From a virus (lineage: Duplodnaviria > Caudoviricetes): a stretch of DNA of 25,780 bases. A program made the translations under genes and the position numbers. Location: IMG/VR virus record IMGVR_UViG_3300045093_000058, positions 1 through 25,780 of that record. The stretch is one strand, 5' to 3'. Under the pieces are notes generated by a model. That model was not told the DNA's origin, ran no database searches, and saw only the letters and a list, made by a program, of their open reading frames with translations. This document shows positions 2,133 through 22,693 of the stretch, in pieces (the stretch's first letter is position 1; each line of letters opens with the position of its first letter).

Positions 2133-3665
2133 ATGACCGATCTCGACCTGGCCTTGCGGCGTCCGGGGCAAATCCTCCTGCTCGAACGCACCCACGCCCT
2201 AGGGCTCCTCGACCGCATGCTCACCACTCAGCGCCCGGGCCGTGGGCTGTTCGGGAATGCGCTTTCCGCGCTGGGCCTCAAGCCGACGGCAGGCCACGAT
2301 ATCCCCGAACGGCCCAAGGTTCTGGGCTTGCCTTCGCTCCCATGGGCAGAGAATGCCGAGCAGGGCGAGGGCTATCTGATCGTCGACGGCATCGCGGTGA
2401 TGGACGTCGCCGGTGTGATGACGCCCCACGGTTATTACGACTGGTGGGAGGATCGCTGGGTTGGCGGCTATGCCCAGATCGGCGCCAGCCATGATGCAGC
2501 CGAGGAAGATGACCGGGTGCGGGCAATCTTCGCGCGCGTCAATTCCCCGGGAGGGCTGGTCGATGGATGCTTCGATCTTTGCGATGACATGGCAGCGCGT
2601 TCCAAGCCGTTTCACGTCCATGCTCGCATGGCTTGTTCGGCCGCCTATGCATTGGCCTCGACCGCCGACCGGATCGACGCGCCGCGCGAGGGTGACGTCG
2701 GGTCGATCGGCGTTTTGATCACCCACTACGATATTTCCGACATGCTCGCCGAATGGGGCGTCAAGGTCGAGGCGATCCAGTCCGGCCCTCGTAAGACCGA
2801 TGCCGCTGAGTGGAAGCCACTTTCCGACGACGCCCGTGCCCATCTCAAGGCCGTCGTCGATCAGATCGCCAAGCGCTTCGTGGCGACCGTCGAGGCCGGT
2901 CGGCCCATGACGGCGGAACAGATCCGGGCCACCGAAGCGCGCTGGTATCTCGCTGAACACGACGATCCCGAGATGAGCGGCATGGCCCTCGGCCTTGTCG
3001 ATGGCATCGCAACCGAACGCGCGGCCTTCGCCGCGCTGCACCAATCCCTCGAGACATCGGGGGGACCTGCGGCCAGGGCCGCATCCACGACAGAGAAGGA
3101 AGCTGAAATGTCTCTAGAAGAGCAGATCGCGGCCCTGCGTGCGAAAGCCGCACGGGGGGACGCTGCCGCCAAGCGCAAGCTCAAATCGCTCGGCGTCAGC
3201 CTCAAGGCGACGACGAACGACGACGATCCCGATGCGGAAACCGAAGAGGATGATCCGGAATCGGAAACCGAGGAAGACGATCCCGAGGCCGAGACGGACA
3301 AGGAAGAGGAAGGCGAGGGGACCGATGACGATCCCGAGGCCGAGACCGAGGATGAGGAGGCAGAGGACGATGATGAAGAGCCTGCCGCCAAGGCCACCGG
3401 ATCGAAAGCCGGTTTCGCACTCATGGGCTGCAAGGAAGCCAAGGGGCGCGAAAAGCTCGCTGCAAACCTCGCCCGCAAGGTCGGCGCCAAGAAGCTGAAC
3501 TACGGCGAAGCGAAGCAGATGTTGGCGGCCGCGCCGAAGGGATCGCGCCTCGGACAGGCCATGGCAGGCCGCGACCGCAATCCCGGAGCATCGCACGGTT
3601 CCGGAAAGGCTTCGGCCAAGGGTCTGGCCTCCGCTGTCGATCGCTACAACGCCAAGCGCAAATAG
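2133..3665 (+). CDS. S49-family head maturation protease fused to scaffold domain
   Basis: VNSPGG, ACSAAYALAS and VGSIGV S49 motifs; acidic low-complexity C-terminal part; lambda gpC position. Confidence 0.93.
   Translation: MTDLDLALRRPGQILLLERTHALGLLDRMLTTQRPGRGLFGNALSALGLKPTAGHDIPERPKVLGLPSLPWAENAEQGEGYLIVDGIAVMDVAGVMTPHGYYDWWEDRWVGGYAQIGASHDAAEEDDRVRAIFARVNSPGGLVDGCFDLCDDMAARSKPFHVHARMACSAAYALASTADRIDAPREGDVGSIGVLITHYDISDMLAEWGVKVEAIQSGPRKTDAAEWKPLSDDARAHLKAVVDQIAKRFVATVEAGRPMTAEQIRATEARWYLAEHDDPEMSGMALGLVDGIATERAAFAALHQSLETSGGPAARAASTTEKEAEMSLEEQIAALRAKAARGDAAAKRKLKSLGVSLKATTNDDDPDAETEEDDPESETEEDDPEAETDKEEEGEGTDDDPEAETEDEEAEDDDEEPAAKATGSKAGFALMGCKEAKGREKLAANLARKVGAKKLNYGEAKQMLAAAPKGSRLGQAMAGRDRNPGASHGSGKASAKGLASAVDRYNAKRK
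3108..3665 (+). CDS. Putative nested scaffolding protein (Nu3-like), in frame within the protease gene
   Basis: AAGGAAG followed by an in-frame ATG at 3108 (MSLEEQIAALRAK...), just after the protease domain; same layout as lambda C/Nu3. Confidence 0.6.
   Translation: MSLEEQIAALRAKAARGDAAAKRKLKSLGVSLKATTNDDDPDAETEEDDPESETEEDDPEAETDKEEEGEGTDDDPEAETEDEEAEDDDEEPAAKATGSKAGFALMGCKEAKGREKLAANLARKVGAKKLNYGEAKQMLAAAPKGSRLGQAMAGRDRNPGASHGSGKASAKGLASAVDRYNAKRK
3222..3378 (+). repeat. Degenerate 27-nt coding repeat DDP(D/E)(A/S)ET(E/D)x in the acidic scaffold linker
   Basis: Four copies in the translation: DDPDAETEE, DDPESETEE, DDPEAETDK, DDPEAETED. Confidence 0.8.
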
Positions 3666-18298: not shown

Positions 18299-19273
18299 AT
18301 GGCCGATCTGACGGTTTCTCACTATTCGACCGGAACGGCGACAGTCGCCGCCAACGGCACCAACGTCGTAGGGCAGGGGACGGCCTGGCTCGGCGCCGTG
18401 CGGCCGGGCGATCTGTTCGGCACGCATCGCGGCCTTTCGATCCGCATCCTGTCGGTCAACAGCAACACCAGCTTGACGTTGGCGCGCGCCTGGCCGGGGC
18501 TGGCGCAGACGGCAGCGGCGTACGAGATCCAGCGCACGCCCTATGACATGGGATACCGGCAGGCGATCGAAGACCTGATTACCGGTATCAGCGATGGCAA
18601 TTTGCCCATGTTGGCTGCGCTCACCGGCGCGGCGGACAAGCTTCCTTACTTCGATAGCGCGAATTCGATGGCGACGGCGGATTTCCCTGCATGGGCCCGG
18701 TCAATGCTCTCCCAGCCCGGCGCGGCGGACAAGCTTCCTTACCTCACAGGGGCAAATGGTGCGGCTCTCACGACTCTGACGAGCTTCGCGCGATCTCTCC
18801 TGGATGACGAGGATGCGGCAGCCTTCTATAGTACGCTCGGTCAGGTCCCCGCCGCCCAAATCCGCAACGATCTGCCGCCCGACAAGGCGTTCCGGCGCGG
18901 CAATATTCTAGGAACTGTGTCGCAGTCTGGTGGCGTGCCGACAGGGGCGGTGATCGAGCGGGGAAGCAATTCAAACGGCGAGTATGTGAGGCTCGCCGAT
19001 GGGACCCAAATCTGTTGGAACTTCGAGGCGGGTTCGGCCGATTGCAGCGACACCAATACCTTCTTGGGCAGTCTTTATCGTGGGGCCGTCGCTTGGTCGT
19101 TTCCCGCTGGATTCTCCGCCATCCCGAATGTCTTGGTCGTGACACGTACGAATAGTCGAGTTCCCGGGCCGGCAACCGCAACAACTTCGGCAAGCACTCT
19201 TTATCATCTGCAGGGAGTGAGTTCGTCCACGCTCACTGCCATTGGTGGAATCGCCGTTGGCCGGTGGAACTAA
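18299..19273 (+). CDS. Tail fibre protein: constant 155-aa N-terminus plus currently expressed variable tip V1
   Basis: GGAG RBS; YSTGTATV...VVGQGTAW anchor, ADKLPY repeats, C-terminal ERGSNSNGEYVRLADGTQICW...GRWN domain. Confidence 0.9.
   Translation: MADLTVSHYSTGTATVAANGTNVVGQGTAWLGAVRPGDLFGTHRGLSIRILSVNSNTSLTLARAWPGLAQTAAAYEIQRTPYDMGYRQAIEDLITGISDGNLPMLAALTGAADKLPYFDSANSMATADFPAWARSMLSQPGAADKLPYLTGANGAALTTLTSFARSLLDDEDAAAFYSTLGQVPAAQIRNDLPPDKAFRRGNILGTVSQSGGVPTGAVIERGSNSNGEYVRLADGTQICWNFEAGSADCSDTNTFLGSLYRGAVAWSFPAGFSAIPNVLVVTRTNSRVPGPATATTSASTLYHLQGVSSSTLTAIGGIAVGRWN
18624..18742 (+). repeat. 26-bp perfect direct repeat (18624-18649 and 18717-18742) encoding GAADKLPY
   Basis: CCGGCGCGGCGGACAAGCTTCCTTAC occurs twice with a 93-bp period. 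Confidence 0.9.
18764..18781 (+). repeat. Putative recombination site 1 (inside the expressed gene)
   Basis: GCTCTCACGACTCTGACG, read as ALTTLT. Confidence 0.9.
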
Positions 19274-19276
19274 GCT

Positions 19277-19290
19277 GCTCTCACGACTCT
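19277..19290 (+). repeat. Putative recombination site 2 (14-bp core only)
   Basis: GCTCTCACGACTCT followed by AAG, 3 bp after the V1 stop. Confidence 0.85.
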
Positions 19291-19657
19291 AAGTTCGTTC
19301 GCGCGATCCATGCTGGGCACCGCCAACGCCAGCGCCCTACACGATTTAATCGGCAGTGAAATTGAGTACGGCGAGAACGCCAATGGGCAATACGTGCGGT
19401 CACAGAGTGGACTGCAGATTTGTTGGTTCCAAGCATCCGGGTCGGAAGCGAATGACGTGACCGTTTTGCTGCCAGCCAACTTTATCGACAACTCTTATTC
19501 GATAGTCGGAATGACATCCGGTGGCGCGTCTACGGCAGTCGCAATGCCTAGGTTGGGTGGCCGAACGACATCGGCGGTCACCTTTAGAATTTCCAGTAGC
19601 TCCGATGCTCGCGTCAACGCTAACGCGACCTTCATTGCAATCGGAAGGTGGTTCTAG
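19277..19657 (+). other. Silent tail-fibre tip cassette V2 (126 aa)
   Basis: ALTTLSSFARSML...GENANGQYVRSQSGLQICW...IGRWF; no start codon at the cassette head. Confidence 0.85.
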
Positions 19658-19662
19658 AAGCC

Positions 19663-19680
19663 GCTCTCACGACTCTGACG
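19663..19680 (+). repeat. Putative recombination site 3
   Basis: GCTCTCACGACTCTGACG, 5 bp after the V2 stop. Confidence 0.9.
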
Positions 19681-20085
19681 GGCTTTGCCCGCACGATCTT
19701 GGACGACGGAAGCGCGGCCGCCGTCCGGCAAACCCTCGGGGTGGCGTTCGAAACGGGCAGCAATGCCAACGGCGAGTTTGCGCGCTACGCTGACGGAACG
19801 CAGATTTGCTGGAATGTCGTCAGAACTTCCGTGTCCGAAGGACACACCGTAAATTCCTCAGGTTGGTACGTGAGCGATGTAACTCCCGTAACTTTTCCTG
19901 TGTCGTTCGCGTCGGTGCCCAATATCGATACAACATCCAAAAGATCGTCACCCGACCAGGCGATCATATTCGCCTTCTGCAATTCGCCATCCGCTTCCGG
20001 ATTTGGCATCTACTCGGCGCGTACTATCGCCTCGACCGCATCGGGTTTCACGCAAGAATATGTGGCAATCGGCCGGTGGTTTTAG
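19663..20085 (+). other. Silent tail-fibre tip cassette V3 (140 aa)
   Basis: ALTTLTGFARTIL...GSNANGEFARYADGTQICW...IGRWF. Confidence 0.85.
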
Positions 20086-20301
20086 GCAGCGTTCGCTCGC
20101 TCGTTGGGGATTATAAAGTGGCACGTTACGGTGGCACACTCGGCTACAGGCAAAAAATCCCGACAATTTGCAATTCGGAGCGCCAATTTCGGCTCCAAAT
20201 CGGCCCGCCGGCACTATCATCCGCATAAAATTCACCGATATCGCCGGTTTTTCACCGTCAAATTCAGCGTGCCACCCCGGTGTGCCACCATCGCGGTATT
20301 T
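20086..20301. promoter_or_regulatory. Central non-coding spacer with mirrored heptamer pairs; candidate recombination accessory site
   Basis: GTGGCAC at 20118 and 20131; GTGCCAC at 20269 and 20282; A/T tracts between them. Function is inferred. Confidence 0.55.
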
Positions 20302-20712
20302 TCAAAGCCATCGTCCGACCGCAATGCACCACGCCATCATGCTCAAATCTGCGGGCCATGCTCCGTTCTGGAAGACTGCAAGGCTCATGGCCGTGTTGCC
20401 CGAATTCACTGACGGACGCTGCGAGTTTTCTCTGAACCCGGGAGGCGGGATCGAGTCGACCGCGAAGTCGGCATAGAACGGGGTAGCTGAAAAGGCGACC
20501 GGGAATGTCCACGATCCTGATGCGGTTGCGTCGGTGCTTTTAGTGATCGGAACAGACGGCGCCCCGCAAACCTGAAACCCATTTGCAAAGCGCACATAGC
20601 TGCCGTTTGCATTGGCCCCGATCTCGCTATCCACCCCGAGGGTTTGCCGGACGGCGGCCGCGCTTCCGTCGTCCAAGATCGTGCGGGCAAAGCCCGTCAG
20701 AGTCGTGAGAGC
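20302..20712 (-). other. Silent tail-fibre tip cassette V4 (136 aa)
   Basis: ALTTLTGFARTIL...GANANGSYVRFANGFQVC...VGRWL on the minus strand. Confidence 0.85.
20695..20712 (-). repeat. Putative recombination site 4 (inverted)
   Basis: CGTCAGAGTCGTGAGAGC on the + strand. Confidence 0.9.
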
Positions 20713-20725
20713 GGAGTGGAAGGAG

Positions 20726-21190
20726 CTAGAACCACCTGCCTACCGCCTCGGCATGAACGATGTTCCCGCCGGACGATCCATTGCTCCGCCAGCATCGCAA
20801 GATGGCCGATGAAGTGGTGGGAGACCCATTGAGCTGCATCACGCGCCCGTCTGCGCTCCCACTAGCTCCCAGGCCTCCTTCGGCGGCGCCCACAACCACA
20901 GGCGGAGCCGCAAAGGCTGCGGGGTATGTCCATTCGAAGGTCCCGTCGACCACTGCCGTCCGGATGAAACATTTTTGAGTACCATCGGCGCACCTGACGT
21001 AATTGCCTCCGGCATTGCTGTCCTGCTCGATGATCGCTCCGCTCGGTGACCCACCCGATTGCGACACAGCCCCGAGTATGTTTCCGCGCCTGAAAGCCTT
21101 ATCGGGCGGAAGATCATTTCGAACCTGCCCATTGGGTAGCTGCCCTCCAGCGAGCAGGTCTCGCGCCGCCGGCGTCAGAGTCGTGAGAGC
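20726..21190 (-). other. Silent tail-fibre tip cassette V5 (154 aa)
   Basis: ALTTLTPAARDLL...RNDLPPDKAFRRGNILG...YVRCADGTQKC...VGRWF. Confidence 0.85.
21173..21190 (-). repeat. Putative recombination site 5 (inverted)
   Basis: CGTCAGAGTCGTGAGAGC on the + strand. Confidence 0.9.
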
Positions 21191-21196
21191 CGCGCT

Positions 21197-21934
21197 TTAG
21201 AACCACCATCCGACGGCGAGATACCGAACGAAAAACAAAGTGCTTCCTTGGGATGTAAAGCGGAAGAGCTGGGCCCCGGGCGGCTGCGTGGAAGTACCTG
21301 AACCGACAGCCGTAGCAATGGAATAGAGTGACCCTCCAGTATTGCCACTAATCAGACCGACAACGGGCGGTCCGCTAAAGGAAGCGGGATAGGTCCCGAG
21401 GGGGGTTTCTCCGAGGCTCGAAAATCCACTACCGACCACAGAGCTGATCGGTCCGATATTGTCTGCTCTGCCGATGCAAATTTGCGTGCCATCAGCGAAG
21501 CGGACATACTCACCACTGGCATTTGCACCCCGCTCGATGATGCCGCCGGTAGGAACGCCACCGGATTGCCCCACGGTCGCAAGAATGTTCGAGCGACGAT
21601 ATATGTCGGACGTCCATGCCGTAAGTGTCGATGCACGCTTGTGTCTCCACCATTTGATGCCGGTGGTGAGGTCGAGATACTCTTGGTACCAGCCCGCCGA
21701 GTTGATGTACTCGGTATATACGATACCTGCCCCGGCTCCGGGCGGGACATCCATTGTCGCCGTGTCCTCGGAGAAGACATTCCGCCACCCGCTTTCAGTG
21801 ATGTTCGCGAGGGCGTCCGATCCTCCGGTAATACGTTCAGCAATGGCATTGGGTACGCTAAGACCTGCCCGCGCCGCTGCCGCATTCGCGTCCGCCAGTC
21901 TCTGACGCGCAAAGGCCGTCAGAGTCGTGAGAGC
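21197..21934 (-). other. Silent tail-fibre tip cassette V6 (245 aa) with an extra knob-like domain
   Basis: ALTTLTAFARQRL...ITESGW...WYQEY...KWWR...ERGANASGEYVRFADGTQIC...VGWWF. Confidence 0.85.
21917..21934 (-). repeat. Putative recombination site 6 (inverted, outer boundary)
   Basis: CGTCAGAGTCGTGAGAGC on the + strand, 30 bp before the next gene. Confidence 0.9.
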
Positions 21935-21964
21935 GGCATTTTTTCTTAAACCAAGGAGTGATCC

Positions 21965-22285
21965 ATGAGGATTTCCCTCAGCCCCCAGCGCCGTGATGAC
22001 GCGCTGGAGGTTCTGAAGCATGGTGACGTGCTTACAATCAACGGCGAAGAATTCGACTTTTCCGACCTGTCCAATGGCGAAAAGCTGCCTCGTGAGGCGG
22101 TCGATTGCGAATGGCTTGCCAGCGATGTCGAGCGGATCAATGGCGGCATCAGCTTGACGCTGATCCTGCCGCACGGGCCGAACCCATCGCAGGCCGTTGC
22201 CTTCCCCGAGACCCTGGTGAACCCCGCCAATGGTAAGCTGGCGCTCCCGCGCGATCCGGAACCGGAGGTGCCGGCCGATGAGTAA
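21965..22285 (+). CDS. Tail fibre-associated protein (probable assembly factor)
   Basis: AAGGAG RBS; MRISLSPQRRDD...GDVLTINGEEFDFS, a type I recall downstream of GRW-ending fibres. Confidence 0.75.
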   Translation: MRISLSPQRRDDALEVLKHGDVLTINGEEFDFSDLSNGEKLPREAVDCEWLASDVERINGGISLTLILPHGPNPSQAVAFPETLVNPANGKLALPRDPEPEVPADE

Positions 22286-22568
22286 TATCGATTGGTCCCA
22301 AATCATCACCCGTGAGCAGCGGGAAGCGGAAGCTAGGGCGGGGGCATGGGCTGCATTGCGGGGCGCTCGCGATGCGCGGCTCGCCGAACTCGACTGGCTG
22401 ATCACTCGCCATTACGAGGAGACCCTTGCAGAAGGCCGAACACCAACGCTGACGCCTCAATTGTTTGACGCCTTGTTCGTTTATCGTCAGGCTCTGCGTG
22501 ATCTTCCGGAAAACACCGAGGATCCGGCTCATCCGGTCTGGCCGGTCAACCCGTTGCTCGCCGCCTAA
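22278..22568 (+). CDS. Phage tail fibre assembly chaperone
   Basis: GGAGG RBS, ATG 22278; LRGARDARLAELDW...YRQALRDLPE...WP motif. Confidence 0.8.
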   Translation: MSNIDWSQIITREQREAEARAGAWAALRGARDARLAELDWLITRHYEETLAEGRTPTLTPQLFDALFVYRQALRDLPENTEDPAHPVWPVNPLLAA

Positions 22569-22654
22569 TCCCGGCTGCGATGCAGGAGTGCCAGCGCTGC
22601 CACGGCGATCAGGCCACCCACCGGTATTCCGAGCATAAAACTGAAAATGTCCAT
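22565..22654 (-). CDS. Putative 29-aa membrane peptide MDIFSFMLGIPVGGLIAVAALALLHRSRD
   Basis: GGGGGA RBS a few bases before the ATG on the minus strand; single hydrophobic helix and charged tail; too short for the ORF track. Confidence 0.55.
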   Translation of the reverse strand: MDIFSFMLGIPVGGLIAVAALALLHRSRD

Positions 22655-22693
22655 GTGATCCCCCATTCAACGGGCGGATGACACCATGATCCC

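Follow-up and report, generated by a model that had tools for sequence, protein, structure and literature searches.

We analysed a 25,780-nucleotide stretch of a tailed-virus genome (Duplodnaviria; Caudoviricetes; positions 1 to 25,780 of IMG/VR record IMGVR_UViG_3300045093_000058), hereafter the window, in which a side tail-fibre gene is accompanied by five silent, homologous gene ends lying in both orientations around a non-coding spacer. The window covers the head, tail, and lysis genes of a lambda-like siphovirus, among them portal, capsid E, tape measure, J, chaperone, and endolysin, and its sequence was classed as a provirus. Integrases 88% identical to that of this prophage occur in Pelagibacterium lentulum (G001) and in a second genome of the same genus (G228), and because of them the host is likely a Pelagibacterium.

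The fibre gene consists of a constant part and a variable tip, V1, joined at a 14-bp site, GCTCTCACGACTCT. This site occurs in exactly six copies in the window, three on each strand and all perfect (Table 1); a search allowing up to three mismatches returned the same six copies and no extra ones (shuffled controls averaged 2.6 for the three-mismatch search). All copies read ALTTL in frame, and each heads an intact open reading frame (ORF) ending in G(R/W)W(N/F/L) before the stop codon. Joining the 155 constant residues to tips V1 to V6 gives fibres of 324, 281, 295, 291, 309, and 400 aa, so that the anatomy of one expressed gene plus five silent cassettes given in a preliminary description, made from the letters alone, was reproduced, as was its close packing of four silent cassettes, which follow the preceding stop codon by 3, 5, 13, and 6 bp. 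The same description had stated that no cassette has a start of its own at its head, which largely holds. Shine-Dalgarno-like sequences precede only the constant gene (-6.6 kcal/mol) and the downstream gene (-7.5 kcal/mol), cassette starts scored -1.1 kcal/mol or weaker, and V5 and V6 have no start codon between 20 codons before and 25 codons after the site. As small caveats, V3 has an in-frame GTG five codons upstream, and the V6 frame is open for 157 further codons upstream (21197-22405, minus strand), antisense to two accessory genes; homology to the constant region was looked for in this upstream-open part and was not found. The G+C content at third codon positions (GC3) is 0.60-0.68 in the cassettes, compared with 0.74-0.79 in the constant part, J, and the capsid genes, and V1 is 71% identical to V5 over 178 bp. 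Just ahead of the expression site, a 29-bp direct repeat (97%; 18624-18652 and 18717-18745) encodes a duplicated GAADKLPY unit of the constant part.

Table 1. Features of the tail-fibre locus, in window coordinates.
Feature	Position	Strand	Remarks
Copies of the 14-bp site	18764, 19277, 19663 (+); 20699-20712, 21177-21190, 21921-21934 (-)		
Constant N-terminal 155 codons of the side tail-fibre gene	18299..18763	+	own ribosome-binding site
27-bp expression-site block, AATGGTGCGG-CTCTCAC-GACTCTGACG	18755..18781	+	identical in relative L412; antisense strand resembles the attL core
Tip V1, 169 aa	18764..19273	+	at present joined to the constant part; site 18764-18777
Silent cassette V2, 126 aa	19277..19657	+	site 19277-19290; PF21882 match
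Silent cassette V3, 140 aa	19663..20085	+	site 19663-19676
84-bp perfect inverted repeat	19661..19744 (+), partner 20631-20714		heads of V3 and V4
Central non-coding spacer, 54% G+C	20086..20301		between the tails of V3 and V4
Left arm-like pair, 2x GTGCCAC	20118..20137	-	13-bp period
Right arm-like pair, 2x GTGCCAC	20269..20288	+	13-bp period
Silent cassette V4, 136 aa	20302..20712	-	site 20699-20712
Silent cassette V5, 154 aa	20726..21190	-	site 21177-21190
Silent cassette V6, 245 aa	21197..21934	-	site 21921-21934
Conserved fibre-associated gene	21965..22285	+	own ribosome-binding site
Tail-fibre assembly chaperone (PF16778)	22278..22568	+	single, outside the switch

The site is conserved at the DNA level, beyond what the protein requires. 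Its four full codons are identical in all six copies, for which codon usage gives P ~5e-9, compared with agreement in 142 of 439 pairs of shared four- and sixfold degenerate codons in the rest of the cassettes. A symbolic inversion model yielded 240 arrangements, in which V4, V5, and V6 are reached in one step and V2 and V3 in two, as had been proposed; this reach was unchanged when only the expression site was allowed to react. We consider it very likely that some form of site-specific tip switching operates at this locus or did so until recently.

All six tips match PHROG 2712. The profile of the fibre family matched the F2-pyocin side fibre PyoF13 (PDB 25ve) over its whole length (E 1.8e-30), the homology spanning the N-terminal attachment part and the C-terminal receptor-binding domain, and the cassette profile matched the PyoF13 tip (E 1.2e-12), which the available text of its source describes as a receptor-binding domain resembling the lipopolysaccharide-binding domains of R pyocins (PMC13455828). 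Pairwise identity between the cassettes is 33-49% over their whole length and 19-33% distally, and we infer that the tips differ in receptor specificity.

Relatives of the fibre were taken as the best 80 of 505, the best 80 of 312 (17 of 64 parts scanned), and the best 80 of 411 candidates; 254 loci, partly redundant, were examined, 240 of them with a tip, and they comprise 192 distinct ORFs. The closest fibre relative, L412, has a constant part 81% identical to that of the window and a single tip. It carries the identical 27-bp expression-site block (L412:2509-2535), where the longest identical run is 27 bp compared with 13 bp outside, and where synonymous codon identity is 9/9 compared with 55/114 outside. 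Directly after the block, the L412 tip diverges into a seventh tip type. The downstream gene is coupled to the fibre stop by TAATG, a layout shared with other single-tip relatives, in which it is the fibre-associated gene that is coupled in this way. In several single-tip members with near-identical N-termini (P0021/P0045, P0057/P0063, P0064/P0117, and others), the tips swap at other breakpoints, often after GTQIC. Four of the 254 loci have two or three tip copies in the same direction, and among the 243 Devosiaceae genomes nine have the tip, none of them in a cluster. Within IMG/VR, the exact 14-mer forms multi-copy loci in this phage only, all other matches being single-copy with no more than one tip; a search for a stop codon followed by ALTTL returned 36 stretches, of which four had fibre matches, all from this phage. 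The G228 prophage was considered as a relative of the layout and set aside, its tail region being unrelated. An alternative way of carrying several tips is seen at L180:7162-9667, where three complete fibre genes stand in tandem, and two prophage contigs of G001 share an identical 813-bp module of a tip and an accessory gene (L409:1-813 and the end of L411).

No invertase gene was found beside the cassettes in the window with PF00589, PF00239, PHROG, or the profile of the integrase family, and no recombinase remnant was detected in the spacer or the window with the family profile at --max. Serine invertases (PF00239) gave no match in the window and five overlapping upstream records, compared with matches in 12 of 14 genomes used as a control, and an armless tyrosine recombinase flanking the variable genes, as in the Rin type, was not found. 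We followed the prophage upstream through overlapping records that are 99.99-100% identical, with record G252 bridging the remaining repeat gap. A contig of 39,157 bp links the two ends, appearing in three of four runs at the shufflon as well as next to the integrase region. About 22.7 kb before the window lies attL, comprising tRNA-Leu(GAG) and an arm-like pair, followed by a DUF6538 tyrosine integrase. This integrase, ~40 kb upstream of the cassettes, is the sole recombinase found in the 48.5 kb from attL to the window end, as searched by PF00589, PF00239, and PHROG scans of 63 chosen ORFs and by the family profile. Its catalytic R, K, R, H, and Y columns are invariant in all 31 aligned rows. 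The structural model (predicted local distance difference test score 87) has an N-terminal domain of three strands and a helix, and it can be aligned with Tn1549 Int and with lambda Int at full length, the latter over 435-464 columns. The protein appears to have arm-binding, core-binding, and intact catalytic domains, the arm-binding assignment being drawn from weak Atlas leads (0.82-0.85) and from the three-strand-plus-helix topology, which we take to be that of such domains. The 3' end of the integrase gene is duplicated ~1.07 kb downstream (L370:1962-2007 and 3050-3095) around a Fic-domain gene and a small ORF, apparently a moron placed at the int 3' end. An early gene has short tandem repeats (L367:1356-2294, PHROG 4433), at which assemblies break.

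The expression site resembles the attL core of this prophage. Read on the antisense strand, the 27-bp block is CGTCAGAGTC-GTGAGAG-CCGCACCATT, compared with AGTTCGAGTC-TTCTCGA-CCGCACCATT at attL; the flanks are identical at 17 of 20 positions and the 7-bp middle at one of seven. The flank match is the best of 96,724 prophage positions (the next best scores 14), and the expression site is one of two among 48,362 27-mers that reach 17 in any register. Given the peptide NGAALTTLT, a match of this quality has P 0.002, and among the 192 distinct fibre ORFs L412 alone reaches 17. A locus scoring 16/20 (L311) was rejected as a single match within the distal part of a tip. In the attR-type copies of family integrases, the identity block covers the 7-mer in 10 of 10 cases, beginning one base before it in four, and because these blocks always include it, the 7-mer is likely the strand-exchange overlap. 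The mv4 integrase is described as recombining any 7-bp overlap that is common to both partners (10.1101/2023.11.06.565760, available part).

The 216-bp central spacer is fixed to the tails of V3 and V4 and lies inside every possible inversion. It holds two facing pairs of GTGCCAC, the heptamer of the integrase arm sites, each pair being oriented as a P arm is with respect to the sites nearest to it. Each integrase of the family has its own arm array of 12-bp period, and a GTGCCAC/GCGCCAC pair is the signature of this integrase and of its 88% relatives. In the 48.5 kb from attL to the window end, the pair pattern is found at three places (attL, 20118, and 20269), compared with a single place in 232 unselected loci totalling 2.84 Mb. 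Searches with the arm pattern returned unrelated matches in IMG/VR (six of eight loci) and a single match, apparently coding, in 243 genomes. No homologue of the spacer was found in the related loci compared or in 401 genomes of the order, of which three have short DNA matches outside the spacer, and the G001 prophage, with its 88% integrase and a single tip, is without such a spacer. The spacer was rejected as a working attP, for it lacks a tRNA-Leu core and has facing arms, unlike attL and attR, whose arms point in the same direction. A weak att-core-like match (14/24) lies nearly midway between the arm pairs at 20193-20216 and could be a decayed attP core; 68 positions score as high or higher. 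A sigma-70-like site (10/12; 20110-20137, minus strand) over the left arms, directed toward V3 antisense, was discarded as being at chance level (two found, 1.9 expected).

These features led us to propose that the tRNA-Leu integrase of the prophage doubles as a tip invertase acting on an orthogonal att-like site, to which we assign a probability of about one half. The integrase, made on induction, would bind the central arms and recombine the expression site with an inverted site via the shared CTCTCAC. With CTCTCAC as the strand-exchange overlap, the six sites would recombine with one another and not with attB or attP, because the overlap differs. The expression site alone has both att-like flanks, which might bias events toward it, and the central arm pairs would tether the integrase and favour inversion over deletion, since the spacer lies inside every inversion. 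In the lysogen, the integrase would be scarce and the cassette order fixed until induction, and the tips, as divergent as they are distally, would bind different surface sugars. A more elaborate version, with a second orthogonal att core plus an arm-based inversion enhancer, a burst of shuffled tips at each induction, and integron-like capture of tips through the site shared with single-tip relatives, is offered tentatively and seems unlikely to hold in full.

Several observations weigh against this role of the integrase. The spacer arms differ from the att arms in period (13 vs 12 bp) and in their flanks, and their distance is ~430 bp to the nearest site and 1.35 kb to the expression site, compared with 60-110 bp at real att sites. 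By a matrix trained on relatives, the left pair ranks second (15.7 vs 26.9 for attL) and the right pair falls outside the top 10, and further copies of GTGCCAC lie at less closely related members of the integrase family (L384/L449, L391, L427, and L387). The silent sites match the att flanks at 7-8 of 10 positions on the right and at only 2-6 of 10 on the left, other tRNA ends score 11-16 against the block, and the 10+7+10 split was picked after the alignment was seen. A metagenome scan for the right end of the window found no match that would give the prophage's own attR. L412 has the block without silent cassettes. The comparison of cassette order among related prophages, suggested in the preliminary description, found no relative with the layout and no opposing cassettes among the 240 tip-bearing loci, and the six-tip layout is a singleton so far.

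The same direction is taken by the material on switching itself. Both IMG/VR records of the locus have the same cassette order, Logan contigs from four of the 24 listed runs have no rearranged joints, the V1-joined protein was found on 49 contigs and V6, on 48, solely as an isolated call of 185 aa, and no other tip stands on the same constant part among the 120 matches listed of 1,201. The alternative junctions expected earlier are absent from these data, which are contigs and lose rare variants, and which probably derive from one strain because the contigs carrying the locus are 100% identical. The depth of the prophage (10.7-25.7) is close to that of the host flank (10-25) in all four runs, as in an uninduced lysogen. 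The Logan contigs break only at the 84-bp V3/V4 inverted repeat, which we rejected as evidence of inversion, being expected from the repeat length. From the earlier proposal that multi-site inversion switches host range, the multiple-inversion anatomy and the DNA-level conservation of the sites stand, whereas contigs offered no inversion and the host-range role is argued from homology only. The att-like character of the site and the arm-like repeats of the spacer had escaped that description.

The absence of switching from records, runs, and contigs is also what one would expect if the locus is frozen or rarely active, having been served by a dedicated, integrase-derived invertase, a paralogue since deleted, perhaps from the spacer, or acting in trans, whose ancestry the att-like site and the arms would reflect. 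We regard this, the main rival, as rather unlikely. It would fit almost as well because of the GTGCCAC copies at distant family integrases and the scores of other tRNA ends, to which can be added the 13-bp arm period with divergent flanks, the frequency of such integrases in Devosiaceae (41 of 243 genomes, several with two or three), and the use of dedicated enzymes in known systems (PMC6109161, PMC13418256, available parts). Yet all five silent cassettes are intact, neither the spacer nor the window gave a recombinase remnant with the family profile, attL of the prophage itself provides the best att match (17 vs at most 16), and in none of the 240 tip-bearing loci does an integrase of the family lie within 5.8 kb of the tip.

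L412, with its perfect 27-bp block, seventh tip, and no silent cassettes, would also suit a system resembling an integron, in which tips are gained by capture at the expression site and lost by excision between direct repeats. The head-to-tail direct repeats of V1-V3 and of V4-V6 would be substrates for an excising integrase, and the cassettes differ from the neighbouring genes in GC3. Three cassettes are inverted, however, the symmetric arm pairs and the 84-bp V3/V4 inverted repeat suit inversion, and deleted forms were not seen in the two IMG/VR records or the four runs, which makes this explanation improbable. Least probable of all, in our judgement, is that the cassettes are a silent donor library for homologous recombination or gene conversion, with the 14-mer merely mirroring the ALTTL peptide. 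ALTxLT is indeed a motif of the family, single-tip relatives swap tips at several other breakpoints, and there are the V3/V4 repeat and the V1/V5 similarity, but in other fibres that have this peptide motif no more than 8-11 bases agree with the 14-mer, the synonymous identity over the six copies would be a matter of chance, every cassette begins at the site, and the att-core match and the arm pairs would be left unexplained.

Gin, Cin, and Min have invertase genes that adjoin their loci, and a Fis enhancer. In the R64 shufflon, the sites are, as here, asymmetric with one conserved flank, and they are not known to be copies of att. The preliminary description had placed the locus beside Gin, Cin, Min, and Rci, an analogy that fails in one respect, for the cited systems carry a dedicated invertase and this prophage is without one. 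At least three sites in both orientations and a constant 5' part with start-less cassettes fusing in frame are present, as in shufflons, and a dedicated recombinase gene beside the cassettes is absent, which is why we do not file the locus as a member of the Gin/Min or Rin type.

Multi-tip shufflons are already known from Min, Rin, and FRφ. According to the available text of PMC6109161, the Rin shufflon of Bifidobacterium prophages likewise has a constant N-terminus of a receptor-binding protein, several silent C-termini, short asymmetric sites in both orientations, and an enzyme of the tyrosine family; there, a separate armless recombinase, distinct from the prophage integrase, flanks the locus and rearrangements were seen in reads, whereas here no enzyme flanks the locus, an attL-like site and arm-like pairs are present, and contigs show no rearrangement. 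For a two-state locus without a flanking recombinase, an invertase in trans, and not an integrase, was suggested in that text. Min (p15B), Gin (Mu), Cin (P1), and the FRφ shufflon also switch tail-fibre C-termini, in multi-state form, through serine invertases, that of FRφ adjoining its locus (PMC6109161, PMC13418256, available parts), whereas here no PF00239 gene was found; tail-fibre loci with up to six paralogues are described, and locked FRφ variants differ in infectivity (PMC13418256). The R64 pilV shufflon with Rci is alike in its tyrosine recombinase and single constant 5' gene part (PMC9881135, available part) and differs in encoding a plasmid pilus adhesin next to a dedicated rci gene. 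Lambda Int and mv4 Int share core sites around a 7-bp overlap and tandem arm pairs, their described role being integration and excision (10.1101/2023.11.06.565760), whereas inversion is proposed here. The pTN3 integrase is described as inverting DNA with low sequence specificity (PMC5495485, available part). PyoF13 has the fibre homology and is followed by two accessory genes as here, and differs as a tailocin with a single fixed tip per gene and no cassettes in the described part (PMC13455828). We found no report of programmed inversion of a second, orthogonal site set by a heterobivalent integrase or of an alphaproteobacterial tail-fibre switch in the literature searched, nor did mainly non-subscription literature yield one on this locus, on DUF6538 integrases, or on a prophage integrase in a tail-fibre switch.

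Elsewhere in the window, acidic 27-bp repeats lie in the C-terminal part of the head protease gene (3219-3375), and a 35-bp element upstream of the endolysin gene (22649-22683) also occurs on another contig of the same runs (53.9 kb in three of four runs), perhaps as part of a second prophage or as a shared regulatory hairpin.

If the prophage integrase is the invertase, host-range shuffling would need no added gene and would be tied to prophage induction, providing a new route to phase variation; it would also explain some 'orphan' invertible loci and the frozen look of lysogen assemblies. The reprogramming of an orthogonal overlap, so far described in vitro for mv4 Int (10.1101/2023.11.06.565760), would then have a natural counterpart. 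How tyrosine shufflons avoid deletion between direct repeats is posed as an open question in the available text of PMC6109161, and arms in the invariant centre of the locus might be a testable answer. Should a lost paralogue be the invertase after all, the prophage would carry an intact but orphaned six-tip shufflon.

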